Part shown: positions 12,768 through 58,262 of the stretch, piece after piece | How the letters are laid out: each line of letters begins with the position of its first letter | How positions within the stretch are numbered: the first letter of the stretch is position 1 | Origin: a phage | DNA length: 64,000 bases | Strand: one strand, 5' to 3' | Sequence record: NC_135730.1 | The notes under the pieces: model-generated | The model's input: only the letters and a program-made list of their open reading frames with translations | Database searches by the model: none | Told to the model about the DNA's origin: nothing | Program-made: the position numbers and the translations under genes

Positions 12768-12800
12768 ATCTAGATGGTATCGGAGTGTCCTGGAGAGGTT

Positions 12801-13685: not shown

Positions 13686-13697
13686 GGGGAGCGTATA

Positions 13698-15082: not shown

Positions 15083-15759
15083 TGGCAATAAATAGGAAAG
15101 ATGCTGCTGTAAGATCCTTTATAGAAAAAATAATGAGGGACTACCACACCAGTATCAGGGCCAGAGTTGTCAGTGTTGACTACAGTATACCTTCTGCAGC
15201 CGTGCAGCCAATAGCTGAAACTACGTTTGATGACGGAGATGTGGAGAGATACCCTCTTATCTATGACGTTCCAATTCAGGTGATGTCTGCAAACAGCGGA
15301 AAGGCAAGGTTAACACTTCCTATTAAGGCTGGAGATGTTGTAGGATTACAGTTTTCAGAGAGAAATGAAAACAATAACGACGATCAACAAACTCACGGCC
15401 TGTTTCCAGGGTGGGCAATCACCTCTGTCCATTCAGACTCAAACGCTTTACAGATCGATCCTGATAACGTAGAGTTATGGAATGATAGGGTTTATTTTAA
15501 ACTGACACCTTCTGGCGATTTTGAGCTTCAAACACCTGGTGGGACATTACGGTGCGACAGCAGCGGGGAGTTTTCTTTCACTAACGGGGCTGCCAATTTG
15601 CGAGCTGCTGTGGATGGGAATATCAGAATGAATGGTGCCACAATAGACCCATCTGGTAGAATTATAACTGCTGCTGGTGTGGATTTGGATTCATTCTATG
15701 CAGAATATAAAGGTCATACCCACTCTTGCCCTGATGGCGAGACAAGTGGACCGCACTAA
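15082..15759 (+). CDS. baseplate spike protein (gpV / gp5-like)
   Basis: C-terminal apex motif GHTHSCPDGETSGPH resembles the HxH apex of P2 gpV-type spikes; N-terminal OB-fold-like region. Confidence 0.5.
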   Translation: MAINRKDAAVRSFIEKIMRDYHTSIRARVVSVDYSIPSAAVQPIAETTFDDGDVERYPLIYDVPIQVMSANSGKARLTLPIKAGDVVGLQFSERNENNNDDQQTHGLFPGWAITSVHSDSNALQIDPDNVELWNDRVYFKLTPSGDFELQTPGGTLRCDSSGEFSFTNGAANLRAAVDGNIRMNGATIDPSGRIITAAGVDLDSFYAEYKGHTHSCPDGETSGPH

Positions 15760-15771
15760 TAGAGGGCTTTC

Positions 15772-16488
15772 ATGGCTACGCTTTACAGTGATATATTGAT
15801 GGACCCACAGACAGGTGATTTGGCGATAGACAAAGGTCTTGAGTTGATAGATTCAAACCAGGTAAGTCTGCGCCAGCGCTTGTGGATGAGGTTTAATACG
15901 TGGAAGGGGAGCTGGTACTTTGACGAGTTGTTTGGCTTCCCTTATATGGACTTTCTCAGTAAGAAGGTCATGAAGACTGTTCTTGATAACAAGATTATGG
16001 AAGTGGCAAGACAAGAGCCGGATGTGCTAAACATCATAAACTTCCAGTCTACCATGGATCGAAGATCGAGAACATACCAAGCGTTCTTTGAGGTTGTTAC
16101 CAAAGAGAACGAGATTGTAAGGCTGGCTTTCGTAGGTCTTGATCAGTTCACCTACCCACAGCCTGATTCTGGGACAACCTCTCTCTGTGATGATGAGGGT
16201 TGGATTAAGTGGGCTAATAAACTGTACTATCTGATCAACTTCAGGTTGCCTAGAACCGGAGATGCCACATGGTGGAACCAGTATGCTGGTCCTGAGATGG
16301 AAAACCCGATCCCTGTAGGCTCTCTGTTGACTCAGGATAAAGATCTGCTGATGACTGAGGCAGAACAAACCATTAACCGCAATACCTGGACGCTTGCTCC
16401 AGATGAGCGCGAATACTCTGGTGTTATTGCTACCTCCAATGACGAGGCTATTGCCAACCAGTCTGGTCGTGCTATTGATGTTAACTAA
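15772..16488 (+). CDS. putative baseplate wedge protein (gp25 / gpW-like N-terminus)
   Basis: N-terminal pattern DPQTGDL...GSWYFDELFGFPY resembles gp25-like proteins; follows the spike gene. Confidence 0.35.
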   Translation: MATLYSDILMDPQTGDLAIDKGLELIDSNQVSLRQRLWMRFNTWKGSWYFDELFGFPYMDFLSKKVMKTVLDNKIMEVARQEPDVLNIINFQSTMDRRSRTYQAFFEVVTKENEIVRLAFVGLDQFTYPQPDSGTTSLCDDEGWIKWANKLYYLINFRLPRTGDATWWNQYAGPEMENPIPVGSLLTQDKDLLMTEAEQTINRNTWTLAPDEREYSGVIATSNDEAIANQSGRAIDVN

Positions 16489-16497
16489 GGAGAAATC

Positions 16498-17166
16498 ATG
16501 GCTGTAGCTTATCCTACAATACCAATTCCAGATCTTGAAGATGCAGAAACAGTCCTGAGTGATGACTTCTTGGTTGTCAACCAGACTGATGGGACAAGAA
16601 AGGCTAAGATTGACGATGTTGTCAACGATCTTAGCATTACTAAGATAGTCTATTTCACAGAGGGTGGTTATCTTAAGAGCAAGAAGGACTTTGCTTATGA
16701 TCCAGAAACTAAGCGCTACTACACGTGGAACGGGGATTATCCTAAAATAATCCTCCCAGACTCCACGGTAGAGGGCGCTGGGGGTGTGTCTGCAAATGCC
16801 TGGTCTGTTTTTGGTGAGCTTGCTGCAACTTCTTCTGGCAGAATAGTTGATTACGGATCTATCGGTGGTCAGCTTGATATGGATCTTGAAGTTGCGGATA
16901 CCTTTAAAGTTCGACTAACTTCAAATACCACAATCTCTTTTGAAAATCAAACAGAAGGTCTTGAAGGGGTGGCGAGAACTATAACCGTATGCATTACTCA
17001 GACCTCTGGCGGCAACAAAGTCTATTGGCCTGGTAATGTTAAATGGTCCTACGGAAGAGATCCTATCCTAACATTTACAGCTGGTGCAACAGACATTTTC
17101 AAGTTGGAAACCTACGACAACGGGTTAACTTGGTACGGGGCACTGATTATCGCAGGAGCTATCTAA
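16498..17166 (+). CDS. short tail fibre / tailspike-like protein with shared N-terminal anchor domain
   Basis: N-terminal ~100 aa align with the N-terminus of the 1266-aa fibre (DDFLVV..D.TR.KI.DVV...EGG.L...DFAY...AW). Confidence 0.45.
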   Translation: MAVAYPTIPIPDLEDAETVLSDDFLVVNQTDGTRKAKIDDVVNDLSITKIVYFTEGGYLKSKKDFAYDPETKRYYTWNGDYPKIILPDSTVEGAGGVSANAWSVFGELAATSSGRIVDYGSIGGQLDMDLEVADTFKVRLTSNTTISFENQTEGLEGVARTITVCITQTSGGNKVYWPGNVKWSYGRDPILTFTAGATDIFKLETYDNGLTWYGALIIAGAI

Positions 17167-17167
17167 G

Positions 17168-19765
17168 ATGCGTATTCAACATAACATTGATAACGTATTT
17201 CAGATGATTGAGGGGCACAGGAAGTGCCTCGATAACAACACAGGTATTACCAACACCCCTACACAAAATAAGCTAGTAAACCCTGATGGTCTTATAGCTG
17301 CAGGGTGGGCAGGTAATAAGATAAATAATGATTGGGCAATGCATGAGTCCCAAGCTGTGTTGATTCTGGGATACATTGAAGCATACAGAGCATCGAAAAG
17401 CGATTTCTATCTGGATAGGGCAAAAGATGCTTGGGAAGCTTACAATAGTCATCTTCTGGGTGCATATGCAGTAGAAAGTAAAATGCAAAGATTGTCCCAC
17501 TACCCTCTATCCACAGATGGGGTTCCATCACATGGTGGGTTTAAAGATGTGGTGGTGTCTTTTACCAATGGTAGAGGAAAAATCCCAGCTGGATCTCCGA
17601 CATGGGGGGAATACCTGGACAAGGCATTCCAAGCGTATAACGGCGTGTTAGGAAGAAACACTGTAGACTCTGATGTTTACGGCGGCACAGATGCTAACCC
17701 AGATTGGACAACATCCGGATTAAGTTGGTGGGTTGAGTGGTATATAGCATGGGATGGTAATCGCTATTGGGCTAACGGTAGTATAGCTGATAGTGGTCAT
17801 ACGTCTGTAGAGTTTGGCACAATCCAATTACAAGATAAGGGTGTTACAGGCAACCACAAAGTGACCTATTGTGTAAGATTACCTCAAGAGCAGGGTGGAT
17901 CGGTGATACCTGCAGGATCCCCTGTAATTGTAAATCCCATAAACGTGGTTGCAGATAATCAGGCCCCAGAGTTGGACGGGGAAGAAATGTGGTGTGACGC
18001 TTGTTATCAACTCTACACCTTGACAGGTGAGGAAAAGTATTACACCGCGTTTGAACAGTCTTACAACAAGTTGCTTAATTTCAGTGATATAAACGCCTAC
18101 GACAAACTGTTTAGGAAGACCACGTTGATTAAGGCACCGTTTACAGATGGTACTTGTCTTGTTGCAGGAACAGTTCCTGTCATGAGCAGGGACAGTGACG
18201 GATATATCAATTTTAGAATGAACGCACGCCAGCCTTGCGAAATAATTCAAAAAGGGACTACATACAAAATAGGCAGAGATGCTGAAATTGTTATGAATTT
18301 CGGAGGAGAAGGGGTTCTGTTCCAGCCACATTTCATCATTAATGATGGCAACAATAACAAAAAACAGTACAGGATAGGTGTTCCTTTTGGAGGGGCAGAG
18401 GTAACAGAAATAGTTGCCAAGGTTACCGATTTCGTAGAGGTGGTTGGTAAAGACGGTAATCCATATCTCTTACCTAAAGAGGAAAACATTGTCGTAAGTG
18501 GTGGCGCTAGTGTTAGTATGCAGTATGATACCGACATTTACAACCACTCTGACAACTTCACCCGTTGTAATATAGCAAGAGGTAAAGTAACTTTCAATTT
18601 TGGAAGAGAGATTTCTTTAAACTCAGTAACTTATCGATCAGATGATGAGATGGTAAGGGTCAAATTTCTTGACAAAGACAGGTGGTTATGGTATGCTGAT
18701 CTATATGCCACTAATGGACAATGGATAACAGAAACTCTTACTCTAGGAGATTTCAAACTAGATCCGACACAACCTCATCACACTGAAGAAGAGATTAAAC
18801 CTTTCTTTGCTAATCCTAAGGGGCTCACCTCTGTAGATTTCAGCCTAAGCGACAGGCAGATAGGTAATGGCTTGTTTGATCTATATTGCGTCAACACGCT
18901 GCCGCAATTCTATATTGCAGATAGGGATGCTTATCTAATCTGGTTTAGCGTATGGATGGCAAGCAAGACAGAATCAACCGCTAAGGTTGGCGATTGCTAT
19001 GTCAGAAACTACAAGCAAGGTGCATACAGGCACACACCAGGTGTGTTCCCTGCCGGAAAGGTGATAGATAAGGAAAACTATCTCTTAGAGGAAAGGCCAA
19101 ATTGGCCCTACCCAGGCATGCAATACCCGGCAGTCTACTGCATGGGTGCAGAAAACATAGATCGCCATAGATTGTCAAATACAATAGGCTTTCTGTATGA
19201 CGCTCAAGTCTGGTATAATAATACATTTAAGACAGAGGGTCCAGTTGCCTCACGTTATGTATGGCAAAGAGGTAATGAAGGGTTGACTGGTTGGTGGGAG
19301 ATGGTAGATAACTCCAAGCTCCAGTCAAGATCTTTTGTTGCTGCGTGCCGCACAATCTATGAGCTCAAGAAACATAAAGAACCTGTTGATGAAAGATTAT
19401 TCCTGTTCTGCCAGAAATGGGCATGGTTCCTCAACAGATTCCAGTCATCTCATTCAGGAAATCTGCCTACAGACTTTAACACCTCTGGGGGATATTCTTA
19501 TCAAGACAGAGGGGACAGGATGTGGGTGGTAGGTGAATGGCTTGCAGGTTGCTGCTGGCTAGGTCTGTGCGGGTATTCAGAGACAATACCTCAAATAGAT
19601 ATTGTTGTAGAAGCCTGTATGAAGCTACTGCAAAAGCACCACTTCATCAATGGTGATAATGTTTTAAACGGCTGCTGGGCAGTTTCTGACCCGGTGGGCT
19701 ATCACTCTGGCGAAATCCTTCGCGGTCTGGGCCTCTATGCTCAATACCGTGGATTGTACCTTTAA
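17168..19765 (+). CDS. tail-associated protein with (alpha/alpha)6 glycosidase-like domain
   Basis: 865-aa ORF in the tail operon; segments such as ESQAVLILGYIEAYRASKSDFYLDRAKDAWEAY resemble six-hairpin glycosidase folds. Confidence 0.35.
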   Translation: MRIQHNIDNVFQMIEGHRKCLDNNTGITNTPTQNKLVNPDGLIAAGWAGNKINNDWAMHESQAVLILGYIEAYRASKSDFYLDRAKDAWEAYNSHLLGAYAVESKMQRLSHYPLSTDGVPSHGGFKDVVVSFTNGRGKIPAGSPTWGEYLDKAFQAYNGVLGRNTVDSDVYGGTDANPDWTTSGLSWWVEWYIAWDGNRYWANGSIADSGHTSVEFGTIQLQDKGVTGNHKVTYCVRLPQEQGGSVIPAGSPVIVNPINVVADNQAPELDGEEMWCDACYQLYTLTGEEKYYTAFEQSYNKLLNFSDINAYDKLFRKTTLIKAPFTDGTCLVAGTVPVMSRDSDGYINFRMNARQPCEIIQKGTTYKIGRDAEIVMNFGGEGVLFQPHFIINDGNNNKKQYRIGVPFGGAEVTEIVAKVTDFVEVVGKDGNPYLLPKEENIVVSGGASVSMQYDTDIYNHSDNFTRCNIARGKVTFNFGREISLNSVTYRSDDEMVRVKFLDKDRWLWYADLYATNGQWITETLTLGDFKLDPTQPHHTEEEIKPFFANPKGLTSVDFSLSDRQIGNGLFDLYCVNTLPQFYIADRDAYLIWFSVWMASKTESTAKVGDCYVRNYKQGAYRHTPGVFPAGKVIDKENYLLEERPNWPYPGMQYPAVYCMGAENIDRHRLSNTIGFLYDAQVWYNNTFKTEGPVASRYVWQRGNEGLTGWWEMVDNSKLQSRSFVAACRTIYELKKHKEPVDERLFLFCQKWAWFLNRFQSSHSGNLPTDFNTSGGYSYQDRGDRMWVVGEWLAGCCWLGLCGYSETIPQIDIVVEACMKLLQKHHFINGDNVLNGCWAVSDPVGYHSGEILRGLGLYAQYRGLYL

Positions 19766-44320: not shown

Positions 44321-44349
44321 AAAGGGGCCAAACGGCCCCTTTCTTTTTA
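44321..44349. terminator. bidirectional intrinsic terminator between convergent operons
   Basis: AAAGGGGCC-aaac-GGCCCCTTT flanked by an A-run upstream and a T-run downstream. Confidence 0.65.
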
Positions 44350-44352
44350 TAA

Positions 44353-44553
44353 TTAGTAATATTCCCAACACGACCCATCTTCAGACGGCTGGACACGCTT
44401 ACCTTCATGATCGACATAGGTGTAACCACAGCCTTCACAGATAACAGGTGCTGCATAGCCTTCCTTCCACTGATCCTCAGTGATCAATCCTTTCAGATCT
44501 CCGCAGTCACGACCAAACAACTCTTCAGAACAGTCTTTACAAAAATCAGCCAT
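44353..44553 (-). CDS. small Cys-rich (zinc-ribbon-like) protein
   Basis: 66-aa ORF with CKDC...CEGC pairs; RBS GGAGAC. Confidence 0.35.
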   Translation of the reverse strand: MADFCKDCSEELFGRDCGDLKGLITEDQWKEGYAAPVICEGCGYTYVDHEGKRVQPSEDGSCWEYY

Positions 44554-44622
44554 CTCTATCAGTCTCCATATTTAACCAATCTATATTACATATTGCCGAA
44601 GAAACAGTATTTCATTTCATCA

Positions 44623-44841
44623 TCACAGATCTCCAACAACTTCCCAAATACCCCAGTGAGCATCTATATCCTTGATAAAGTATCTTTCTCCACGGTTTGT
44701 CCACACACCTATCCCACCTTTACCATCTATCCCATTGTATACATCTGCCTCATACTCTTTGCCCGGTGTAAAGTGTACACCCATCATAAGGGCTGTTATT
44801 CCATTAGGATTTTTAAATTTAACAAATTTTACTTTGCTCAT
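44623..44841 (-). CDS. hypothetical protein
   Basis: 72-aa ORF, ATG start with upstream purine-rich RBS. Confidence 0.3.
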   Translation of the reverse strand: MSKVKFVKFKNPNGITALMMGVHFTPGKEYEADVYNGIDGKGGIGVWTNRGERYFIKDIDAHWGIWEVVGDL

Positions 44842-44842
44842 A

Positions 44843-45172
44843 TTACTTAATCCTTGCAGTTACAGTAGCGCTATACCCCATGTAGTTATGAGACATAAAG
44901 AATGTAAGCCCTTTAAGTTCAGGATTCTTTCTAAGAAATCGTTTCAATTTTCGAATGCAATTAACACCATGATCATAGTTTGAGAAATTAAATTTAATAC
45001 CCTGCTCCATCATAGTGCACACTTCTTCATGGGTATGCCATTGTCTATCGTGGTCACAAAACCAGTAACCAATACCTTCTTTTTCTTGGATATGCAATCC
45101 CCAAAATACTTTATGCATTGGATATTTTGGTTTTCTACCATGATAGTGTAGTTTAATATTCACATGTGCCAT
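44843..45172 (-). CDS. hypothetical His/Cys-rich protein
   Basis: 109-aa ORF; RBS ACGGAG. Confidence 0.3.
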   Translation of the reverse strand: MAHVNIKLHYHGRKPKYPMHKVFWGLHIQEKEGIGYWFCDHDRQWHTHEEVCTMMEQGIKFNFSNYDHGVNCIRKLKRFLRKNPELKGLTFFMSHNYMGYSATVTARIK

Positions 45173-45205
45173 TTTTTGTTACTCCGTTCTGTATCTGTGA
45201 TAATG

Positions 45206-45235
45206 AGAATAGCAAACTGGGGTGTGTGCTGTCAA
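45206..45235 (-). promoter_or_regulatory. candidate internal promoter in the minus-strand block
   Basis: On the minus strand TTGACA -18- TATTCT in the 168-bp intergenic region. Confidence 0.2.
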
Positions 45236-45340
45236 CAACATTTTTAAGCGTTTTGGGGAAGTTTTTTGAAAGGTGGGTGTAATCACAAGAGAGGGTGGAG
45301 TTATTGAAGGCACAGGCCTCTTTTGAGGCCTTAAAATCGA

Positions 45341-45721
45341 TTATGACACTTTGACGTAGCGCTCTGACAGAGCTGGAAAGCCAAAAGCAGTACCTATACT
45401 ACCGTATGCTACCCACCATTGAAGTTCATCGTGACACCATTTTCCGATCAGGAAGGTGCTGGGGTAGCGGGTCAGTATTTTGGCATAAGCTTTAGGGTCT
45501 GCATCTTCTGGGATAATGATACTTGGAACATCTTTGTTATGGCCACAGCAGCAGTTTAGAGTTTTCAATCCTGCCGCCCATAGACTCATGATAGGCTTAG
45601 CCATACACTTATCAAGGCACACACGTTTTTTGCCGTCACGGAGCTTTTTAGGCACATCAACGATAACATTTTGATGCTTGGCACCTTTCACTTTCCAATT
45701 ATAGGATTTACACTTGCACAT
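45341..45721 (-). CDS. hypothetical Cys-rich protein
   Basis: 126-aa ORF with several Cys clusters (CKCK, CLDKC, CCCGH); RBS GGAGAC. Confidence 0.35.
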   Translation of the reverse strand: MCKCKSYNWKVKGAKHQNVIVDVPKKLRDGKKRVCLDKCMAKPIMSLWAAGLKTLNCCCGHNKDVPSIIIPEDADPKAYAKILTRYPSTFLIGKWCHDELQWWVAYGSIGTAFGFPALSERYVKVS

Positions 45722-45751
45722 TTAATCAGTCTCCATCTAGAAAGCAATACT

Positions 45752-45922
45752 TTACTTAAAATCTTTGTCACCTATTACGATTGCACGAATCCACTCATTG
45801 TGATGTTCAATGGCGGTAAGGTGTAACATAATACAGTGATTGTCATTACCAAACACGGTGCGGTAAGCTTTAGCAGCACCATGATATAACTTCCACATCA
45901 GGTAATGATATCTTCGCCTCAT
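45752..45922 (-). CDS. small hypothetical protein (56 aa, not in ORF track)
   Basis: Hand translation gives MRRRYHYLMWKLYHGAAKAYRTVFGNDNHCIMLHLTAIEHHNEWIRAIVIGDKDFK; ATG overlaps the stop of the upstream HAD gene; RBS GGAGAAAGAG. Confidence 0.25.
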   Translation of the reverse strand: MRRRYHYLMWKLYHGAAKAYRTVFGNDNHCIMLHLTAIEHHNEWIRAIVIGDKDFK

Positions 45923-46398
45923 GGCTCTTTCTCCGGTTCAGGATCTGGGTAATCTTCAATAATAAAGGGCCATCCGTTCCGCTTAGCCTCAGACTTGTAC
46001 TCAATCTCCTTCATTGCAAACTCTAACTGATTTTTAGCCGGAATACATGCCGGAGAATCATCAACCCAGATATCTGGGTAGATATCAAACTGCGCCAGAT
46101 AGGCTGCCTTCTGAACACCACCAGTATAAAACACACCAACATCGAGCTCCTTGCGCCAATACTCAATGTCCACATTGTCTTGAGTAATGAATCGGAAAGT
46201 CACAAGGTATACTGTCCACCCCTCCTTCTTCAGGTCCCTGATCAGGCGGGAGAAGATGAAAGGGCTCGCATTAAACGTTCCATCAAAGTCAATGGCAACG
46301 ATGTGCGTGCCGTGGCGAGTCTCATATGGATTGCTTGTGGTAAGATTGCTGTAGTTAAAAGGGACCTCTTCCCCGCAGTAGCTGTAGTCCATATTCAC
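45919..46398 (-). CDS. HAD-superfamily phosphatase (nucleotidase-like)
   Basis: Motif I IDFDGTF (DxDGT) and C-terminal VDDSP (DD motif). Confidence 0.5.
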   Translation of the reverse strand: MNMDYSYCGEEVPFNYSNLTTSNPYETRHGTHIVAIDFDGTFNASPFIFSRLIRDLKKEGWTVYLVTFRFITQDNVDIEYWRKELDVGVFYTGGVQKAAYLAQFDIYPDIWVDDSPACIPAKNQLEFAMKEIEYKSEAKRNGWPFIIEDYPDPEPEKEP

Positions 46399-46670
46399 AC
46401 CTTCTCGTTGATAAATTTACGGGCGGTTTGGTGAGTTGTTTCTGCTGTCTTCAGAATAATATTAATTTTATCGTCAAGATCATTCATCTCAGCAGTTAAT
46501 TCAGGAATCTCTCCGGCATGCATAGTGAAATCATACATAGACATGCCAAGAATCTCATTGATTCGGCGGTTGCATTCTGCAGCACGCTGGTTCATTTTCC
46601 AAGCTAACACCAGAGCCTCTTGCGTAGCCTCCAGTGCAAAGTCTAATACGTCAGCTTCTTCTTTCGTCAT
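46395..46670 (-). CDS. hypothetical helical protein
   Basis: 91-aa ORF overlapping the downstream gene by 4 nt. Confidence 0.3.
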   Translation of the reverse strand: MTKEEADVLDFALEATQEALVLAWKMNQRAAECNRRINEILGMSMYDFTMHAGEIPELTAEMNDLDDKINIILKTAETTHQTARKFINEKV

Positions 46671-46725
46671 CTCAGTCTCTCTTGTTGTATTGTTGGTAGG
46701 TGCATGAACACCTTATATCTCACTT

Positions 46726-47292
46726 TTATTCAAACTGCAATAGTAAGTCCACCACCGCGCTAGGTCTGTCAACAAATTCCCCAGGTCCACATGCCCACAG
46801 AGGGTATCCGTCTACATACCGCCAAATCCAACCTGCAGTGTGTAGCTCAAGCAGGGCAGTACCGTCCTTACTGTCAACCACTCTTTCCCACAGTGTTGGG
46901 CAGCGAAGCTTGAGAATCGGATCACCTCCCTTATACCCGTCCATGTAGATACCCATTGCAAAGTTCAGCATCATCTTTTTGTGCACTGATCTCTTACTGA
47001 GAGTGCTCATCACTTCCTCTTTGTGAATGTTTGTAAGCTTCTCTTTGGCTACCCGCAGATCGTTGCAACCATTGTTCAGCAGATCTTCCAGACACTTGAT
47101 CCGAAGGTCGTGAATGTCTTTGTCGTGTACCGTTGGCACAGGGTCGTAGCGGTATAGCACTGTTGATACAAGGTTGCTCGGGTGTGGGTCTGACAGCAAC
47201 CCATAACCCCAATACTCTTCTGTATCTGAAAGGACAAGACACCCAATGTCTCTGTCAAGCTTTCCTGTGTTGTAAGCCACATTGACCGCCAT
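46726..47292 (-). CDS. hypothetical protein
   Basis: 188-aa ORF in the co-directional minus-strand block. Confidence 0.35.
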   Translation of the reverse strand: MAVNVAYNTGKLDRDIGCLVLSDTEEYWGYGLLSDPHPSNLVSTVLYRYDPVPTVHDKDIHDLRIKCLEDLLNNGCNDLRVAKEKLTNIHKEEVMSTLSKRSVHKKMMLNFAMGIYMDGYKGGDPILKLRCPTLWERVVDSKDGTALLELHTAGWIWRYVDGYPLWACGPGEFVDRPSAVVDLLLQFE

Positions 47293-47294
47293 GA

Positions 47295-47540
47295 CTATAG
47301 CTCCACTAACAAAGTGCTTTCAAAGTGCCGTTCATGCAGACCGTTGTAAGGGACCACTTCTACAACGCCATCACGGACATATGGGGCCATCATGGTGGTA
47401 TAATCTCCAAACGGGTTGGTATTGTCACTAACCACAACCACCTTCTGCCCTTCCTTGGCAGAGTGCCAAATAGATCTGCACTTCATTAGGTGTTCGAGAG
47501 CTCCAGGTAAAATTTTGTTACGTTCTTTACGGGTCTTCAT
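47295..47540 (-). CDS. hypothetical protein
   Basis: 81-aa ORF tightly packed with flanking genes. Confidence 0.3.
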   Translation of the reverse strand: MKTRKERNKILPGALEHLMKCRSIWHSAKEGQKVVVVSDNTNPFGDYTTMMAPYVRDGVVEVVPYNGLHERHFESTLLVEL

Positions 47541-47986
47541 AATAGGTATAGCTCCTTATGAAAGTAGTCTTTTAATTTCTCACTGAGAAACCTCTTGATA
47601 CCTTCCTCTAAAGTGTTTTCGATGTAGTCCAGCTTAACTGCTTCGATGGACATATCATAGATCGCCAGCTCTAAGCTGTCAAGTCCCATCATAGCATGAA
47701 CCATAAGATTTTCATCTTCAGATACATTCAGGGGGCTTCCTATAACATCTGGAGGCAGAATAGTTTCCCAATTATTCTGGGCGGTAGTTCTCCCTCCCTC
47801 TACTTTACGGCGCAGTTCGAATGTGTTCTTAGTGTAGAACACTTCATAAGAAACGATACGACTGTCGCTCTCATAATAAACAAAGTTCAGGTAGGAGCCT
47901 AGCCGCAGTCGGCAAACTTCCACCCCAAACCATTGTTTCTTATAAGAATTCAGGCTAATGCTGTCGCATTCACGTTTGCTCAACAC
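47537..47986 (-). CDS. hypothetical protein
   Basis: 149-aa ORF overlapping the downstream gene by 4 nt. Confidence 0.35.
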   Translation of the reverse strand: MLSKRECDSISLNSYKKQWFGVEVCRLRLGSYLNFVYYESDSRIVSYEVFYTKNTFELRRKVEGGRTTAQNNWETILPPDVIGSPLNVSEDENLMVHAMMGLDSLELAIYDMSIEAVKLDYIENTLEEGIKRFLSEKLKDYFHKELYLL

Positions 47987-48001
47987 GGCTCTCTCCTTTT
48001 A

Positions 48002-48235
48002 TTAATCTTCGTAAATCAGGATTTCTGCTTTAGGTTTTCGTGCTTTCAGGTCCAGCTCTATCCAGTGCACCATAGCTGTTTCAAGAAAAACAGCTTGGAT
48101 GCATCCGTCCTCAGCGTGCCCCACCAACATAACGAGATCTTCACCTTCGTCATCTGCATCACGAACATAAAGAATCTCTCCAGATTCAAAGTCTTTCACA
48201 ACCTGATTGCTAGATAATTTACGAATTTTTGCCAT
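48002..48235 (-). CDS. small protein, paralog family member 4
   Basis: 77 aa; RBS GAGGG; shares the GEIL/GTVV-centred pattern with the three upstream 87-aa ORFs. Confidence 0.4.
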   Translation of the reverse strand: MAKIRKLSSNQVVKDFESGEILYVRDADDEGEDLVMLVGHAEDGCIQAVFLETAMVHWIELDLKARKPKAEILIYED

Positions 48236-48236
48236 A

Positions 48237-48500
48237 TCAGAAACCCTCTAAAAAGCTCTTGTAGAAAACAATCTCAGTATCCACACCAGTCACAATCTTG
48301 TCGTTCCTGATTTCATCGGTAAGATAGGTGTCAAAACGCAGAACCTGTGTGGTGTTGTCACACATCCACTCAGCTGTGACCATTGCGAAAATCTTAGCAT
48401 CTTCATTATCTGGTGTGAATGTTACCACCTCACCGCACTTAAACTTTTCGATAGGTTGAGTGTTAGCTTTCGGTTCTGCGATAGTGATTTTTGTGGTCAT
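48237..48500 (-). CDS. small protein, paralog family member 3
   Basis: 87 aa; start overlaps the upstream stop; motif KCGEVVTF. Confidence 0.4.
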   Translation of the reverse strand: MTTKITIAEPKANTQPIEKFKCGEVVTFTPDNEDAKIFAMVTAEWMCDNTTQVLRFDTYLTDEIRNDKIVTGVDTEIVFYKSFLEGF

Positions 48501-48763
48501 TATTCTCCTCCTTCTTTTGAATAGCTTGTCTCTCCAAGGATGGTAATTTTGGTGTCAAGCTCTGTAACTTTCATGTTTGGTGGCAGATCGTACAACTCAT
48601 TATTTTCTAAATCGAACCCCCACACACAATGTTCTCCTGTTTTGACAATCATAACTATGTTTTGAATGCCGTCTCCGTCGCAACTTACCACGGTCCCACA
48701 CGGAAAGCTGTCTGCACGCTTTTTGTTCTTCACCTTAGAATTGAATACAATGCTGGTAGCCAT
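48500..48763 (-). CDS. small protein, paralog family member 2
   Basis: 87 aa; MAT...GTVV...VTELD..ILGE pattern shared with member 1. Confidence 0.4.
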   Translation of the reverse strand: MATSIVFNSKVKNKKRADSFPCGTVVSCDGDGIQNIVMIVKTGEHCVWGFDLENNELYDLPPNMKVTELDTKITILGETSYSKEGGE

Positions 48764-49026
48764 TATTGTTCCTCCACCATAACTTCGCCAAGAATTTCTA
48801 TGCAGGCATCCATTTCTGTAACAACCAAACTGTGAGGTAGTTCTACAAACACCTTTCTGAACAGGTCAAATACCCCAACATATATGTTTGCAGGATGTGA
48901 TTTTACAACAAGTGCTGTATTCACATCCCCAAGTTCATCAACAAACATCACCACAGTGCCTGGAGCTACTGAGGACAGATACTTCTTAGTTTTACGGTTT
49001 GATGCAAATTTTAACTCTGTTGCCAT
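48763..49026 (-). CDS. small protein, paralog family member 1
   Basis: 87 aa; strong RBS GAGGAGG; MAT...GTVV...VTEMD..ILGE. Confidence 0.4.
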   Translation of the reverse strand: MATELKFASNRKTKKYLSSVAPGTVVMFVDELGDVNTALVVKSHPANIYVGVFDLFRKVFVELPHSLVVTEMDACIEILGEVMVEEQ

Positions 49027-49041
49027 AAATAACCTCCTCTC

Positions 49042-50523
49042 TTACTTAGCGTACTCGATTAATTCCACAGTTTTCCCAAAGCTCGGGATATAATTTTTAT
49101 TATACCCCTCAGTGAGGACCCATAGAGTATCGTACTTTTTCCACTTGTTGTCAACAACCTTTTGTTCAAAGTTATGCTCAAAGTATAGGTCGGTCAGGAC
49201 GATGACATCTTTTGCATTTGGTATGTTGGCATCCAGATACTCGAACACGCAAGCAGCTGTTGTTCCCCATGTCGAGTGGACCTCATAGTTGATCATTTCG
49301 TCTATGTTGCCGCGAGTGTATACTTTAACCTCTCCAACCTCAGTTGACCAACAGAACATTGTAACCTTAAATTCTTTATACAGATTGCACAATCCGGTGA
49401 TTTCATTGAACATTTTCTTTAAAGTTCTTTGAGAGATCGAGCCAGAAACGTCTAAAGCCACCACAATATCTATAGTGTTTTCCGGATTACGACCAGGAAC
49501 AATAACGTGCTGGTTCTTGTTTATAGCTCCGACTTTTCGCATTGTGCTGGTCAAAGACCCAGATCGGCGACCAGGTTTTCTGTAGGTCAGTTCAGCCTTT
49601 CGTTTAGACAACATGCGTTGCTTGATGATGTCTATATAATTGATTACAGGCTTACCTCTATTCTTGACAAACTCACGAACCGCCTCAGGGCAACGACCTC
49701 CGGAAGCTTGCATTGCTGCCTCAAGCATGTCACCAGAGTCCTGCATGGCCTGATCTTTATCAGATTGGCTGATTACAGGTTGTGGCTGATCATACCCCAT
49801 AGCCTTTCCAAGATCATCACTGGTGCCACCGTTCCCACTCATGTGATCATCGGTTTGTCGCTTATCTCCTTGAGAGTTCTCACCTTTACCGCTCTTACTT
49901 TTACCGTTATTCTGATCTCTTTGCTTATCAAGAACTGCATAGACGTTCTCAGCAATCCATCCATGAAACTTCATGTCGCAGTAGCAGTTAGCTAAGAAGC
50001 CAAAAGGCTTGCCTTTCACGAACGTAGTGCTTTTCCCCTTCGGGAAGAAAACACAAGGAGGCTTGCTAAAGTCAACCACAAGACCTGTGTTGATAACGTG
50101 ATCACAAGCAATATTGAACAGTTCCGGCTCAAAGCTTTTACCACGGACCAGGTGATCACAGATAATATGCCCCACCTCATGTGACAGAAGGAAGGCCACC
50201 TCTTTCACAGATTTTGGGGAATAGAAAACTTCAGCCATCTCAAACTGCTCGTCAGTTAGAGAAGCCTTAAGAATAGCCTTGCGTTCATCAGCCAATCCCA
50301 TAATGAACTCAGGGCTGTAATAAATGCGTTTATGGTCGGTTGCCATGGTGGAGCACCATGTGTGGTTTTCTACGAACTGCAACCCTGACAGCAGTGTGCC
50401 ATAAAACGGCAGCTTTTCAAGGAGATACATACGTGCAGCCTGCAACATTCTCAGGGCATCATCTTTCTGTGAGGCAATGATTTCTGAACTTCTGCTATCC
50501 ATTAAAACTCCAGAAGGGGCCAT
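49042..50523 (-). CDS. metallopeptidase-like / VWA-like domain protein (DUF2201-type)
   Basis: N-terminal HEVGHIICDH (HExxH zinc-peptidase motif); C-terminal IDIVVALDVSGSIS (VWA MIDAS-like DxSxS). Confidence 0.55.
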   Translation of the reverse strand: MAPSGVLMDSRSSEIIASQKDDALRMLQAARMYLLEKLPFYGTLLSGLQFVENHTWCSTMATDHKRIYYSPEFIMGLADERKAILKASLTDEQFEMAEVFYSPKSVKEVAFLLSHEVGHIICDHLVRGKSFEPELFNIACDHVINTGLVVDFSKPPCVFFPKGKSTTFVKGKPFGFLANCYCDMKFHGWIAENVYAVLDKQRDQNNGKSKSGKGENSQGDKRQTDDHMSGNGGTSDDLGKAMGYDQPQPVISQSDKDQAMQDSGDMLEAAMQASGGRCPEAVREFVKNRGKPVINYIDIIKQRMLSKRKAELTYRKPGRRSGSLTSTMRKVGAINKNQHVIVPGRNPENTIDIVVALDVSGSISQRTLKKMFNEITGLCNLYKEFKVTMFCWSTEVGEVKVYTRGNIDEMINYEVHSTWGTTAACVFEYLDANIPNAKDVIVLTDLYFEHNFEQKVVDNKWKKYDTLWVLTEGYNKNYIPSFGKTVELIEYAK

Positions 50524-50535
50524 TGGCCCCTGTCA

Positions 50536-51513
50536 TTATTTAACGTGTTTGAAAATACCTGCCAACTCGGTCATTGTCATGCGGGTGGTCTTCATAAGAT
50601 CTGTCATAGCTTTCTCCATAATTGGAGATACTACCATAAAGTTTCCTTTAGTGAAACCTTTATTCCAGTCGGTCACCAACAGTGGTTTAAGTCCAGCTCC
50701 GAGACGTTCACCAGTTAAAGCACAGCATTTGCGAATATACGAACTCTTAAATTGGCTGAACGACAGATCAACTTTCATACCTGCATCGTAGAACGTTTGA
50801 CAATAGAAAGTGTAAGCCTTAGCAATCTCAACATCATCAGGCAGTGCAGGAACTTCTTCTGCAATCTCCTCTTCGACCTCCTGAGGATCTTTTTCCTCTT
50901 CAGAGTTCTGTTCTTCAATTTCTTCTGCCACAGTCTCGTTTACGATGTCTGAAATGTGTTTGTTGGCTGCACGATCAGCCATGAAATTTTTAAAGTCCTG
51001 CATTGGTGACATATCTTCCTCCTCTTCGTCAAATAGTGCTAGTTTATCTTCTTCTGTCCCGTATTGCAAGATGAAATCTTCAAAAGTATAATCACCTTTC
51101 AATTTCTCCATACGCTCTTCGCTCAGGTGGAGCATCATCTGCTGGACAATTTTTCGATCAGTTTTGTCTTTAATCAGGATTGCAGTCTTTTTATCTACCA
51201 GACAGTCTTTCAGAGCATTGCACCTCAACCCTACCACACAACAATTATCAATTGCGTAAGGACCTTCATCATCTATCCGCTCCAGAGATGGGTAGAAAGG
51301 ATTTCCCAGTCCGTTTTCATCTGTGTGCATGTCGAAAGGTATAAGGGTGTAGTCGCATACCCCCTCCCCTAAAAGTTTTTTACCAAATAGGAGGTATTCT
51401 TCCCACGACAGGTCGAACTCTATATCTCGTTTCCGTGCATTATTCTGTTTGCGTCTATATTTTTTGAGCAGGCGCTCTAACTCTTCTGGTGTATAATATT
51501 TTTCAAGATTCAT
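50536..51513 (-). CDS. HNH-like endonuclease domain protein with acidic linker
   Basis: PSLERIDDEGPYAIDNCCVVGLRCNALK resembles the SIDRID...GY...N...C..CN..K HNH variant; ATG 51513 with RBS GAGAGA preferred over track TTG 51579. Confidence 0.4.
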   Translation of the reverse strand: MNLEKYYTPEELERLLKKYRRKQNNARKRDIEFDLSWEEYLLFGKKLLGEGVCDYTLIPFDMHTDENGLGNPFYPSLERIDDEGPYAIDNCCVVGLRCNALKDCLVDKKTAILIKDKTDRKIVQQMMLHLSEERMEKLKGDYTFEDFILQYGTEEDKLALFDEEEEDMSPMQDFKNFMADRAANKHISDIVNETVAEEIEEQNSEEEKDPQEVEEEIAEEVPALPDDVEIAKAYTFYCQTFYDAGMKVDLSFSQFKSSYIRKCCALTGERLGAGLKPLLVTDWNKGFTKGNFMVVSPIMEKAMTDLMKTTRMTMTELAGIFKHVK

Positions 51514-51544: not shown

Positions 51545-51573
51545 ATCTTATCAAGTGCCTCGACAGATGTCAA
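51545..51573 (-). promoter_or_regulatory. divergent promoter for the minus-strand block
   Basis: On the minus strand TTGACA -17- TAAGAT; its -35 forms an inverted repeat with the plus-strand -35. Confidence 0.4.
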
Positions 51574-51586: not shown

Positions 51587-51615
51587 TTGACTTTACTATA
51601 AATCTACGATATAGT
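51587..51615 (+). promoter_or_regulatory. early promoter for the plus-strand block
   Basis: TTGACT -17- TATAGT, 40 nt upstream of ATG 51656. Confidence 0.55.
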
Positions 51616-53846: not shown

Positions 53847-54149
53847 GTGGCAAGGATGCCACTTAAAAGAGTAATAAACATGTTATACCAGCAATATGAA
53901 CTTCGTGCAGAAAAAGAGTTAAATTTTGACAAAGATATTCACAGATATTATTATGGGAAAGTTAGAGGGCAAGCAAGAAAGTGTACTCCAACACTCTTTT
54001 ATGCCAGCAGACGACTAGCGCCAGAAGAGGCAACAGCAGAAAGGGTTGCGTACAACTGGAGAGTCACGTATGATATTGACAGATCCGATGTGATATCTGT
54101 TTTGGAAAACTTTGAAAACACTTACACACAAGTAGAGGACTTTTACTAA
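53847..54149 (+). CDS. hypothetical protein
   Basis: 100-aa ORF; end overlaps the next start. Confidence 0.35.
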   Translation: MARMPLKRVINMLYQQYELRAEKELNFDKDIHRYYYGKVRGQARKCTPTLFYASRRLAPEEATAERVAYNWRVTYDIDRSDVISVLENFENTYTQVEDFY

Positions 54150-55333
54150 TGTCAAGAAACGTATTCGAAAGTGGTCAAATCACTGTCCGTGAGTTGCCAG
54201 CTATTATTCAGTTTGCCCAACGTCATAGCCGATCTGTCCTAATTTTGGGACCAATGGGTGTGGGTAAAAGCCAGGTGATGAAGCAGATCGCTGATAATAT
54301 GTTCGGTGAGCGAGATGACAACCTTGTTGACGTGCGACTGTCAGATAAAGATCCTGCCGACTTATCTGGGCTACCTATCCCTGTAGAAGCGGATGGAACT
54401 ACACGTACAGTGTTTGCAATTCCAGAATTTTGGCCTGCTGATCCTGACTGGAGCGGAATTATCTTTCTGGATGAGCTCACTCATGCAGATAACTACCTGC
54501 AAAAGGTTGCAATGCAAATTATGCTTGACCACAAGTGCGGTACCTATGCATTCCCTAAGGGTTCTGTTTTTGTGGCTGCTGGTAACCGTTCTACAGATGG
54601 TGCGGTTCTTTCGGCGCTCGAAGCCCCTCTGGCTAACCGTTTTATCATTGTAGAGGTTACAAGCAATGCAGAGGTGTTTATTGAGGACTACGCATTCCTT
54701 AATGGGGTGCACTCCTCTGTAATTGGATATCTGAAAAGAGTTCCATCAGCTATCGATAATTATGAGGCCATGGCTGAGATTAATTGTCCATCTTTTGCCA
54801 CACCACGATCTTGGGTTGCTGCATCTGACATCTTGCACGATTTTGACAGCGGTATTATTTCTGACGCTATGGCCCGTGTTCTTCTGCAAGGTGCTATTGG
54901 TCACACTGCAGCGGTAGAGATCTGGACCTACCACACCAAGAAACGCAATTTACCGGAAATCGGTCGGATTATGGCAGGTGGCTGCAAAGAATACGTAGGC
55001 CCTAAGCAGCCAGACATTTTGTGGATTCTTGGATCTGAAGGTTGTATCGCTATTCGTAATATGATGGAAAATGCAAGTATCTCAGACGAAGATCTTGTCA
55101 GCTGCGTGGCAAACTTCCTCGATTTCCTTTGGGAAAACTTCAAGGACGAGAACCGAGATTTTGTATTCTCAGTCTTTATGGCGATGATGAAGCCTAATGC
55201 CTTAGGAAATGCCTTGCTTATCGGTAAAGGTCGTGACAAGATTGTTGCTCAGCTGATCAAAGCATACCCAAACCTGATGAAGATTGTAAAAGAGTTTGGT
55301 GAAGAGTTTAGCGCCATTTTGGCTAAAGCTTAA
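54149..55333 (+). CDS. MoxR / CobS-like AAA+ ATPase
   Basis: Walker A GPMGVGKS and Walker B IIFLDELTHAD; length and layout of AAA_5 / MoxR family. Confidence 0.6.
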   Translation: MSRNVFESGQITVRELPAIIQFAQRHSRSVLILGPMGVGKSQVMKQIADNMFGERDDNLVDVRLSDKDPADLSGLPIPVEADGTTRTVFAIPEFWPADPDWSGIIFLDELTHADNYLQKVAMQIMLDHKCGTYAFPKGSVFVAAGNRSTDGAVLSALEAPLANRFIIVEVTSNAEVFIEDYAFLNGVHSSVIGYLKRVPSAIDNYEAMAEINCPSFATPRSWVAASDILHDFDSGIISDAMARVLLQGAIGHTAAVEIWTYHTKKRNLPEIGRIMAGGCKEYVGPKQPDILWILGSEGCIAIRNMMENASISDEDLVSCVANFLDFLWENFKDENRDFVFSVFMAMMKPNALGNALLIGKGRDKIVAQLIKAYPNLMKIVKEFGEEFSAILAKA

Positions 55334-55772: not shown

Positions 55773-56273
55773 GTGAAAATTAAGATCTTTGCTATTATTT
55801 TGAGCGCATTTTTATCGCTGCCTGTTGTTGCAGCACCAAAACAAAAAGTATATCATACTTGCAAGCCCTCAGATACTAAGGAAAACATTCTGGCATGCAA
55901 TATCTACAGGGAGGCTAGAGGGGATGGCACGATGGGTATGCTGGCATCCGGGTTTGCCACACTAAACAGGAAATCTCACCCCAAATACCCAGACACTATA
56001 AGAAAGATTGTCTACCAACCTAACCAGTTTTCGTGGACAAACCACGGCAAAACTTTTAAGGTGACAGAAAAAGATTCATGGGATCACGCTAAAAGTCTTG
56101 CAAAGATGCTTCTAAAGGTCTATAATAACAACCATGTTGCATACATGGCTATGGACATAACAGGTGGAGCAACACACTACCATACAACCAAAGTACGACC
56201 GAAATGGGCAAAAAAGATGCAGAGGACAGCTCAATTCGGGAGTCATATCTACTACAAGGAGCGCAATAAATGA
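55773..56273 (+). CDS. secreted cell-wall hydrolase (SleB / Hydrolase_2-like)
   Basis: N-terminal signal peptide MKIKIFAIILSAFLSLPVVAA; family-like motifs NIYREARGD, QPNQFSW, GGATHYH; GTG start. Confidence 0.55.
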   Translation: MKIKIFAIILSAFLSLPVVAAPKQKVYHTCKPSDTKENILACNIYREARGDGTMGMLASGFATLNRKSHPKYPDTIRKIVYQPNQFSWTNHGKTFKVTEKDSWDHAKSLAKMLLKVYNNNHVAYMAMDITGGATHYHTTKVRPKWAKKMQRTAQFGSHIYYKERNK

Positions 56274-57389
56274 TTGTAAACAGTAATGAAACTAAAGCAG
56301 TACTAACCGGAAATATGGAGGTCACCAGGGGCTCAATTTCTCTGAACAAAGAGACTTTTGGGCTAATCATTAAAGGGATTTACGAAGATAAGGTGCTGGC
56401 AAGCTGCCGTGAACCAATCTTCAATGCTGTGGACTCTCATGTTGAGTCTGGACGGGGTGATGTGCCGATCATTATTCACTCTCCTACAGACCTTGAACCA
56501 TACTTCTTTGTGCAGGACGTTGGATTGGGCATGTCAGAAGAGATGGTCCGCAACACTTTCATGAACCTCGGTGAGTCAACCAAGCGCAACAGCAACGCTC
56601 TGGTTGGCAATAAAGGTGTTGGTTCAAAGGCTCCGTTCAGCATGGTGGACACTTTCGATGTTATCAGTGTGCACAATGGTATTGAAAGCACATATCTATT
56701 GTTCTTGGATCAGGGTATCCCAAACGTTACCAAGATCCGCGAGCGGAAGACTGAAGAGCACAACGGGGTAAAAGTTCAGTTCCATGTTAAGAAAGAGCAT
56801 GTCCTGAAATATCGCACTGCTATTGCATCGTGCTTACGCTATGCGAAGTTTCCGTTCATCGTCACCGATCCCATGACCAGTAAGATGTTAGAAGGTGACA
56901 AGGTTGAGGCACAGTATCATTACGAGAAGGATGGCTGGAAAATGACCATCCTGAAAGGTTATACCAGTTCTGATGAGAGCCGTGTTGTGATGGGTCACCA
57001 ACCTTACCGCTCCAAGTTCCTGGAGACATTGACCGATTACCCTGCAATCTGCGTGGAAATTCCTATTGGGGATTGCAATATTAACCCTGGGCGTGAATGG
57101 ACCATAGAGGGCCATGACGACGGTGGATTCCAGGATCGCCTGGAGGCATTTGTCAAAGAAGGTATACGTCTTCGCGGGGCAGAAGTTGTTGCAGAACTGG
57201 AGACGGCAAAAACCTCCGCAGAAGCACGTGAAATGATGAAGAATAGTGGAGTGTTCGGACACATCTTCGGCAAGAACTTTATGTGGAACCGTTGGGAAGA
57301 AACAGGGCTTGGCGACTTAGGCGATTGTGAAATTTTCGCTGGCGGCTTAAATAAAGGCCGCATAGGCTATGCTTGTTACGGAAAGTCGG
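56270..57389 (+). CDS. GHKL-family (Bergerat-fold) ATPase, N-terminal portion; 3' end runs into the assembly gap
   Basis: N-box REPIFNAVDS (ExxxNAxD), G1 box DVGLGMS (DxGxG), G2 box GNKGVGSKAPF; ORF continues into the N run at 57390. Confidence 0.5.
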
Positions 57390-57399
57390 NNNNNNNNNN
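57390..57399. other. assembly gap (10 N)
   Basis: Run of ten n characters in the sequence. Confidence 0.99.
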
Positions 57400-58262
57400 A
57401 GTTCTTACGAGGTGTATACCTTGTATTTAACGACGGAGACGGCAAATATAACCGGAATAAGTGTAACTACTTAAGCGAGATCACCGGACGCAACGTTTTC
57501 TATTGCCGGAACACGGATCTGGTGAAAGAGTTTAAAGAGGCGGCACACCATCCGTTCTTTGCAGATACGGTCAAATTGTTATCGGAGCTTCCACGCCGAC
57601 CTGCGAAGAAAGGTGAAACCAAAACTCGTTACGAGCCAGGCTACTGGGTTAAGAAGCTTAGAGAGGATGGCTACTTCCATCGTGAGCGCCTCACGAAGGC
57701 AGAGTTCAAGAAGATTAAGCATTGCATCCCTTATGAGGGGGATATCCAACGGGGAAGCTGCTGGCTGGGCCAGATGAGTAACATCTACCAGCAAAATTAT
57801 GACCGTGTGCGTGCTGCACTCCAGATTCCTGAAGGTGAAGATCTGTACCTGGTATCAGAATCTCGTCTGCTTTGGACTGATCCTGATTGCCAGTATGTTA
57901 CAGAGAAGAATGTGGAACATTTGTTGAAAGAGGATGCTTGGAAATTCTTACTGACTCGCGCAGCAAATGAAACTTCATATGACAGCCTGTATAGACAATT
58001 AGGGAAAATTATCCCCATGCAGGATTTTGGAAATTATCGGCCACATTTCCACAAGTGGGAAGGTAACACCGCGTGGAAGCACAGTGAGCTAAATCATCGT
58101 GCCAAAATCTTAATCGCCAACCGGGTTAAGTGCGGGAAGGCCTATATTGCAAGATTGGAAAAGAAATATCCACTTTTGAAGCATGTGGGCTTGAAATATT
58201 GGGACACTCCTGCTATGATTGAATACCGTGAACTGATCGATACAAAGAATAACATCAAATAA
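57400..58262 (+). CDS. hypothetical protein, post-gap portion (possibly the C-terminal part of the GHKL ATPase gene)
   Basis: Open frame from the gap to the stop at 58262; reading-frame relationship to the upstream ORF cannot be determined across the gap. Confidence 0.35.

Follow-up and report, generated by a model that had tools for sequence, protein, structure and literature searches.

Which kind of genes make up the leftward block at positions 44353-51513 of the phage sequence NC_135730.1, and do they serve host takeover and anti-defence early in infection, as a reading made from the letters alone (the sequence-only reading) had proposed? The window, i.e. the whole stretch of DNA that was analysed, comprises 64,000 nucleotides (nt); the genes of the block are numbered g1 to g16 from the promoter end (Table 1). 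Our analysis makes it likely that the block is a non-structural operon of individually dispensable genes, transcribed leftward (probably early) from a host sigma-70-type promoter, with internal promoters and a terminator shared with the neighbouring gene; its content is a mixed bag and not one machine. The locus is ordinary and already known, a dispensable accessory operon in a phage genus that has been sampled well, and it offers one testable lead.

The 7.3-kb region matched 121 phage records in a nucleotide comparison; in 111 of these, 80% or more of the region was covered. The top matches, with 97.9% identity across the whole block, were the Escherichia phages Mangalyan, DrSchubert (Bas50) and RudolfGeigy, all of them Vequintavirus, that is, rV5-like myophages of 135-140 kb; judged by sequence, the window is a piece of a Vequintavirus (rV5-like) genome. 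In the best-matching relatives the block is flanked on one side by the gene for a 'lateral tail fiber protein with intimin domain' and on the other by a divergent arm with a putative fucosyltransferase, several small genes, a MoxR ATPase, a cell-wall hydrolase, rIIA, rIIB and a helicase. Kropinski et al. 2013 (Virol J 10:76) split rV5 into four transcriptional units, one of which is 'genes 11-26'. Their supplement lists the promoters P010 and P011, the internal promoters P020 and P025 and the terminators t026/t027; gp11 was named a Srd homologue and gp12 a DUF2201_N protein, and the gene table gives 'MS evidence' (mass spectrometry) for none of gp11-26. The block is the Vequintavirus counterpart of this unit, already described in 2013, which the sequence-only reading did not recognise. 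As in rV5, 16 co-directional genes in the same order run between the intimin/Ig-domain lateral tail-fibre gene (gp27) and the arm of gene 10, with bidirectional promoters at one end (P010/P011) and a bidirectional intrinsic terminator at the other (t026/t027); P020 is identical in the two phages, P025 is equivalent by position, and the two share the terminator hairpin GGGGCC...GGCCCC. The differences noted are a single 85-amino-acid (aa) gene 14 in rV5 where the window carries the g3+g4 allele, a 135-aa gene 25 where it carries g14+g15, and the ORFs 13 and 23 in the rV5 list, which are probably spurious or frameshift-derived.

The listing of open reading frames (ORFs) gave exactly 16 non-overlapping ones on the minus strand, the first at 50536-51513 and the last at 44353-44553. 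Both skews, GC and AT, are below zero at ~44-52 kb only and positive across the remainder of the 64 kb. The 16-gene block is thus confirmed at the proposed coordinates. Start/stop overlaps had been called pervasive; 5 of the 15 junctions do overlap, by 1-4 nt, but the remaining ones do not, three of them being gaps of 1-2 nt. A GGAG-type ribosome-binding site precedes most starts. Summed over five close relatives, the synonymous difference (pS) in the block was 0.083 and the nonsynonymous difference (pN) 0.005, a ratio of 0.06; for single genes pN/pS ranged from 0 to 0.23, except for g15 (0.51, on nine substitutions in total). Because of these low values all 16 ORFs are real coding genes, and purifying selection is strong on nearly every one of them. 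Two starts are likely to differ from those of the listed ORFs: ATG 50502 is favoured for g2 because of the spacing to the ribosome-binding site and the annotation of relatives, and ATG 46392 for g11 because of the same spacing and a homologue (P0001) of 157 aa, the length that this start would give.

The dispensability of the genes is known from the literature. A 2025 preprint on HIDEN-SEQ (doi 10.1101/2025.11.20.689424) reports transposon-insertion sequencing of Bas54 (phage MaxBurger), whose genes bas54_0056 to 0042 correspond as orthologues to g1-g16 (14 genes at 96-100% identity; one gene ~40% identical to g3/g4 replaces that pair). On E. coli K-12 every block gene was classified as 'Non-essential', with 79-100% of the TA sites hit, and the g15 orthologue was the only one called 'Reduced fitness'. 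This tolerance, the small number of genes detectable outside the genus and two polymorphic cassettes (see below) bear out the term accessory. The present locus adds little to the map of the unit in rV5 (2013) and the measurement of its dispensability in Bas54 (2025); its value is that of a shortlist.

The sigma-70-type promoter and the bidirectional terminator assigned to the ends of the block were both found as described (Table 1). The main promoter stands back to back with the one that drives the divergent arm, and upstream of the Srd-like gene in Av-05 (Avunavirus) and Hena1 (Henunavirus), where the proteins are only ~40% identical, a perfect TTGACA and the extended -10 are kept. Transcription had been taken to run from the divergent promoter to the terminator; both elements are present, but there are internal promoter candidates (45235-45206 and 47682-47654), and the block is not necessarily a single transcript. 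Since a hairpin after g13 is followed by one of these candidates in a 168-nt gap, g14-g16 look like a sub-operon. The region of this candidate sub-operon coincides with the polymorphic distal cassette. The rV5 late-promoter motif TGGTAAAATA occurs in exactly four copies in the window, all on the plus strand of the structural region, and a motif search of the window found no exact copy in the block. A version with one mismatch, TGGTTAAATA, lies at 44569-44578 (-) in the 69-nt gap upstream of g16 and may be due to chance. In Av-05 the same arm runs on into genes annotated as nudix hydrolase, DenV endonuclease, site-specific RNA endonuclease and valyl-tRNA synthetase modifier, which are names used for non-structural T4 genes. 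From the host-type promoter, the lack of an exact late motif and the lack of virion MS evidence we infer that the block is probably expressed early.

The first gene behind this promoter had been labelled HNH-like, a label that does not hold: g1 is Srd-like. Its match to the Srd profile (phrog_1400) covers residues 13-212, and thus part of the protein. PHROG families named HNH endonuclease and endonuclease VII are also matched, these 'endonuclease' matches covering residues 13-121 only; Pfam gave no match (including no HNH at E<=0.1), and a single-sequence search of the PDB gave chance matches only. An alignment across four genera divides g1 into a conserved N-terminal module, an acidic linker whose length varies and a C-terminal domain that is again conserved. 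The N-terminal module ('CDYT...YPS[VL]ERIDD...GN.CVV...N.LKD') is degenerate and HNH/EndoVII-like, without His at the catalytic position in the four genera. The possibility of an HNH endonuclease was rejected on the missing catalytic His of the beta-beta-alpha-Me motif and the lack of a Pfam HNH match; because the HNH-type module has no catalytic histidine, g1 would be expected to bind and not to cut. An internal duplication was rejected as well: the N- and C-terminal domains appear by eye to share a register, which neither BLASTP (E 0.63) nor hhalign (probability 1.8%) supported. Srd of T4 binds the catalytic (N-terminal) half of RNase E, activates the enzyme and speeds the decay of host mRNA. 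g1 is like it in that its N-terminal part matches the Srd and 'decoy of host sigma70' profiles and in its place as first gene behind a host-type promoter; it is longer than Srd, with the acidic linker and the second conserved domain in addition. By analogy with T4 Srd, a related role in binding a host factor is most likely for g1, which would target RNase E or RNA polymerase/sigma and so favour phage gene expression.

Several points weigh against an early takeover operon. We found no transcriptome or transcript timing of any Vequintavirinae phage in the literature; 11 of the 16 genes are without known function; and the likeness of g1 to Srd spans part of a protein whose halves are not demonstrably duplicates. 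In rV5, sigma-70-like promoters are spread over the whole genome, also before late genes, and Kropinski et al. 2013 doubted a T4-like promoter switch, so that the promoter alone is not proof of early expression. The same promoter distribution is in line with an alternative in which the block is middle or constitutive, not early, and the small genes are for the most part neutral passengers that play no part in host takeover or anti-defence; all genes of the block are dispensable on K-12, 12 of 15 had no effect in the clinical strain CFE311 (see below), and most lack PADLOC, NCBIfam and Pfam matches. However, a pN/pS of 0.06, with nearly every gene under strong purifying selection, is hard to square with neutrality; the conserved promoter and a Srd-like gene in first place fit early-gene practice in T4-like phages; and the swapping of cassettes suggests selection imposed by the host. 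We regard the passenger explanation as fairly unlikely and retain the operon that is probably early.

The lead is provided by g2, for which the proposed metallopeptidase/VWA assignment is confirmed. Both Pfam domains score above their cut-offs (PF13203, 3.4e-28 and 99.4 bits, cut-off 23.2; PF09967, 6.4e-11 and 42.9 bits, cut-off 26.4), and the zincin motif HEVGH at 115 and the MIDAS motif DVSGS at 358 are intact. Phage records with a homologue of g2 number 673, N4 (gp25) and jumbo phages among them. The label 'HNH endonuclease' that RefSeq and PHROG 1314 give to the family (NC_041869, NC_024134) is wrong, as Pfam gives zincin plus VWA; this mislabel has been carried into many N4-like and Vibrio phage records.

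Known MoxR AAA+/VWA co-chaperone pairs that resemble MoxR and g2 are RavA-ViaA, the tail maturation pair of Acidianus two-tailed virus (ATV), the jumbo-phage pair and N4 gp24-gp25. In the general model of such pairs, the VWA protein captures a substrate peptide and MoxR releases the substrate in an altered conformation. Like the jumbo-phage MoxR + metallopeptidase-vWA pair, g2 has an N-terminal zincin and a C-terminal VWA domain with HExxH and MIDAS, and there is a MoxR gene in the genome. The MoxR-type ATPase gene lies directly upstream of the VWA gene and is co-directional with it in N4, 121Q, ABPH49, PBES02 and UPEC06, whereas in Vequintavirus, Av-05, Hena1 and a Salmonella relative the pair is split across the divergent promoter; here MoxR is found on the opposite arm, 3.6 kb from g2. 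We propose that g2 would be the co-chaperone partner of this MoxR ATPase: the MIDAS site of its VWA domain would capture a target protein, MoxR would remodel the captured target using ATP, and the HExxH site of g2 could cleave it. A likely third partner would be g7. In all six Vequintavirinae-like lineages examined, the gene next after the VWA gene encodes 108-145 aa; by tblastn, g7 was located directly after the g2 homologue in L006 (Av-05) and L007, and hhalign related it to the positional equivalents in Hena1, PBES02 and UPEC06 (probability 90.6%, E 1.3e-6).

The HIDEN-SEQ preprint supplies functional data. To overcome DS-28, which is predicted to be a defence system of two genes in CFE311, Bas54 needed MoxR (bas54_0063) and bas54_0140; the sensitivity of the MoxR knockout to DS-28 was reproduced with cloned DS-28 alone. 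Fitness values in CFE311 are given here from a resampling table against K-12 and were assigned to CFE311 by the command line, which names that library. The log2 fold change was -7.23 (q 0) for bas54_0063, -2.20 (p 0.0009, q 0.009) for the g2 orthologue bas54_0055 and -2.28 (p 0.028, q 0.195) for the g7 orthologue bas54_0051; bas54_0054 (g3/g4 equivalent, +0.46) and bas54_0053 (g5, +0.33) were neutral, the value for bas54_0052 (g6, -1.32) was not significant, and the remaining block genes were near zero (-0.09 to +0.47). Because the genes between g2 and g7 are neutral in CFE311, the signals of g2 and g7 do not reflect simple polarity. In Extended Data Table 8 (Data S6, S7), the sheet titled 'resampling_K-12_vs_CFE303' shows a TRANSIT command line that refers to library 311, and the same numbers recur further on, where the file index places the CFE311 sheet.

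MoxR, the zincin-VWA protein g2 and g7 could form a split three-gene counter-defence machine that captures, remodels and cleaves a component of DS-28 or of its activation pathway, a proposal that we regard as tentative and on balance doubtful. It sets MoxR/g2 apart from the other MoxR/VWA pairs, since the sole functional datum here points to counter-defence (DS-28) and not to assembly. A number of facts count against it: bas54_0140, the second validated DS-28 counter-gene, lies outside the block; the depletion of g2 is modest compared with that of MoxR, and the preprint contains neither a validation nor a discussion of g2; the depletion of g7 is not significant after correction and is not discussed there either; the AlphaFold2 model of g7 (six-strand beta-meander plus three helices) has low confidence (pLDDT 62.7), and a fold search with this model gave no informative match. 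The general suggestion of host-takeover and anti-defence genes stands in part, with the likeness of g1 to T4 Srd and, as the sole anti-defence evidence, the external Bas54 data for MoxR and g2 in its favour; a PADLOC scan of ten block proteins found no match in the defence-related library.

In another interpretation, MoxR and g2 are a chaperone-protease for virion assembly, as proposed for jumbo phages and shown for the ATV tail, and the block is partly a morphogenesis unit beside the tail-fibre genes. Iyer et al. 2021, who described the MoxR + metallopeptidase-vWA pair in jumbo phages, proposed virion assembly with peptidolytic processing; the block adjoins the lateral tail-fibre genes, the g7 family is labelled 'tail protein' by PHROG, and several tail-fibre genes also shift fitness in CFE311. 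On the other hand, the g2 and MoxR orthologues of Bas54 tolerated insertions at 94% of the TA sites on K-12, so that infective virions form on this host without them. Moreover, the rV5 gene table lists MS evidence for no block product, the promoters preceding the genes are of sigma-70 type without the late motif, cloned DS-28 by itself reproduced the MoxR knockout phenotype, and the N4 pair is located among genes of nucleotide metabolism. An assembly role is quite unlikely. Hundreds of lytic phages from several families encode the MoxR + zincin-VWA pair; a three-gene role against DS-28, if true, would be the first assigned function for the phage MoxR + DUF2201 pair (N4 gp24/gp25, jumbo phages, Vequintavirinae), and joint action of MoxR, g2 and g7 would open a way to study DS-28. 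The VWA partner, too, is depleted in the single host in which MoxR counters a defence system; this can be read from the published screen, whose authors make no comment on it.

Downstream of the VWA gene, the four-gene paralog array of the sequence-only reading shrinks to a firm pair (g3 and g4) and a probable third member: g5 gave nothing in BLASTP and was related to the pair by hhalign (Table 1), whereas g6 was unsupported in BLASTP (nothing found) and in hhalign (probability 1.8%). A search with a g3-g5 profile against 1.84 billion representatives returned ~6 small-protein clusters and ~109 NHL-repeat proteins, the latter through profile positions 40-69 ('N[IV][YW]V..DL....[LV]..LP....VTE[LM]'), which look like one beta-propeller blade. 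One could thus imagine g3-g6 as a four-copy tandem paralog array akin to NHL beta-propeller blades, serving as the propeller-type third component of a MoxR-vWA ternary system. Such MoxR-vWA-propeller systems exist (Pfam bpX1), the genes come directly after the VWA gene, and three of the four are clear or probable paralogs. Homology to NHL was nevertheless rejected, as each repeat match scored only 0-12 bits and the significance came from summing weak repeats. In addition, Pfam NHL does not match g3-g5, g6 is unrelated by sequence, the family has only those few small-protein clusters among the representatives searched, and the Bas54 orthologues of g3/g4 and g5 are neutral in CFE311, the host where MoxR matters. 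The propeller explanation is highly improbable.

Comparison with related phages separated conserved from variable members. Only g1, g2, g7 and g11 are detectable in other genera; the variable members are the cassettes g3+g4 and g14+g15. Of the 121 related records, 43 carry the g3+g4 allele; in nom, bov10K2, MaxBurger and rV5, the relatives without it that were examined, one gene of 85-88 aa, ~40% identical to either, stands in its place. The g14+g15 allele is present in 29 of the 121, with one 135-aa gene in its place in MaxTheCat and rV5. Full (100%) coverage of the block, and with it both alleles, was seen in only 6 records. The remaining genes are genus-restricted small proteins. Two cassettes are exchanged between strains, as would be expected of genes that interact with the host, and functions tied to particular hosts may reasonably be sought in these strain-variable cassettes.

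Table 1. Genes and signals of the block, with the MoxR gene and the promoter of the divergent arm (positions in the window; PHROG families as matched).
Feature	Position	Strand	Observations
Divergent partner promoter (rV5 P010 equivalent)	51587..51615	+	TTGACT-17-TATAGT; near-identical to published P010; drives arm with MoxR and rIIA/B
Main block promoter (rV5 P011 equivalent)	51545..51573	-	TTGACA-17-TAAGAT, TG extended -10; consensus scan 10/12; P011 published at same place
g1, Srd-like, acidic, 325 aa	50536..51513	-	PHROG 3118 (8e-111), phrog_1400 Srd anti-sigma (3.8e-9), phrog_4592 sigma70 decoy (1.5e-12)
GC palindrome between g1 and g2	50515..50531		AGGGGCCAATGGCCCCT; perfect; terminator-like score on + (antisense) strand only
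g2, zincin metallopeptidase + VWA	49042..50523	-	Pfam PF13203 (DUF2201_N), PF09967 (DUF2201)
g3, 87 aa, paralog of g4, polymorphic cassette	48763..49026	-	phrog_10698; 38% identity to g4; cross-matches E ~1e-8
g4, 87 aa, paralog of g3	48500..48763	-	38% identity to g3; cross-matches E ~1e-8
g5, 87 aa, probable distant paralog of g3/g4	48237..48500	-	hhalign vs g3/g4 profile: probability 81%, E 1.3e-5, full length
g6, small acidic protein, 77 aa	48002..48235	-	separate PHROG 12046
g7, 149 aa, candidate third partner of MoxR/g2	47537..47986	-	synteny after VWA gene, profile homology
Internal promoter candidate	47654..47682	-	promoter scan
g8, 81 aa	47295..47540	-	phrog_4868; 100% conserved across five relatives, 25 synonymous changes
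g9, 188 aa, genus-restricted	46726..47292	-	phrog_12232 only; pN/pS 0.014; no Pfam, NCBIfam, PADLOC match
Published internal promoter candidate (rV5 P020)	46740..46772	-	identical 33-mer, non-canonical 21-nt spacer
g10, acidic, 91 aa	46395..46670	-	phrog_12604; pN/pS 0.023
g11, capless HAD-fold phosphatase-like	45919..46398	-	
g12, basic, 56 aa	45752..45922	-	phrog_12006; pN/pS 0.23
g13, basic, Cys-rich, 126 aa	45341..45721	-	8 Cys, 6.3% (CxC, Cx3C, CCC-GH); phrog_12958 only; no PDB sequence match
Hairpin after g13 stop	45314..45331	-	AGGCCTC-AAAA-GAGGCCT, no U-tract
Internal promoter candidate for g14-g16 (position of rV5 P025)	45206..45235	-	TTGACA-18-TATTCT with TG; scan 10/12; inside g13-g14 gap
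g14, basic, 109 aa, distal polymorphic cassette	44843..45172	-	phrog_12630
g15, 72 aa, short relative of 135-aa rV5 gp25 / RTP rtp9 family	44623..44841	-	phrog_30425, phrog_15992 (11-81 of 135); 53% identity to MaxTheCat 135-aa gene
g16, acidic, 66 aa, two CxxC pairs (zinc-ribbon-like)	44353..44553	-	Cys 5, 8, 39, 42; 9.1% Cys; phrog_2210
Bidirectional intrinsic terminator, common with convergent lateral tail-fibre gene (rV5 t026/t027)	44321..44349		GGGGCC-AAAC-GGCCCC, 9-bp stem, 6 GC pairs, T-runs on both sides
MoxR AAA+ ATPase, outside block, presumed g2 partner	54149..55333	+	Walker A GPMGVGKS, Walker B IIFLDE; annotated MoxR in relatives

The assignment of g11 as a HAD phosphatase is supported by fold and motifs. 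In 50 diverse homologues D37, D39, T41, R69, K97, W111, D113 and D114 are invariant and T67 is kept in at least 90%; the four HAD signature motifs (DxDxT; S/T; K; DD) and the Rossmannoid HAD core fold are both present. Searches of Pfam, NCBIfam and (with the single sequence) the PDB gave no meaningful match, no curated HAD sequence model was matched, and PDB profile searches gave only sub-threshold matches to 2obb and AphA (E 0.3-0.6). A single-sequence search of a 5.8-billion-protein set found only 5 matches, so that an alignment query was needed; with a six-sequence alignment 626 homologues were retrieved, 0 of which had a Pfam domain. We liken g11 to the capless (C0) HAD phosphatases (the 3'-phosphatase domain of T4 Pnkp, KdsC), from which it differs by its very small size, an extra C-terminal helix and the lack of a sequence-profile match in Pfam or the PDB; it would be a putative capless HAD-fold phosphatase.

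The other small genes (g8, g9, g10 and g12-g16) had only function-unknown PHROG matches. In the Pfam scan of the block only g2 scored above cut-off, and weak matches to Lar_N, Kelch_HCF and spectrin-like families below it were ignored; the NCBIfam scan of the block proteins gave nothing meaningful. Where several Cys-rich small proteins had been noted, there are two, g13 and g16. The g16 family is shared with FelixO1-like phages, as seen from the match of rV5 gp26 to WV8 gp011 (2e-28) and a FelixO1 note in the record of phage nom. The palindrome that separates g1 from g2 could act by attenuating read-through into g2 or by stabilising the end of the g1 transcript.

The Srd-led arm is much longer in other Vequintavirinae genera (L006, which is Av-05 10427-19440, L007 and L008), and compared with these the Vequintavirus arm is shortened by the tail-fibre module. 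Lysozyme and internal head protein are also annotated in the Av-05 arm, and a MazG-like pyrophosphatase in L007 and L008. GenBank further holds 16 'Campylobacter phage' records (MG065658, MG065661, MG065682, MG065662 and others; host C. jejuni) that are ~97% identical to the block; these host labels look doubtful. In the divergent arm of the window, a run of 10 N at 57390-57399 inside rIIA (56270-58262) splits the gene into ORFs 56270-57430 and 57369-58262. It is the sole N run of the window, and because the alignment with rIIA of DrSchubert differs by no indel other than this 10-column gap, the split is an assembly gap and not a frameshift.

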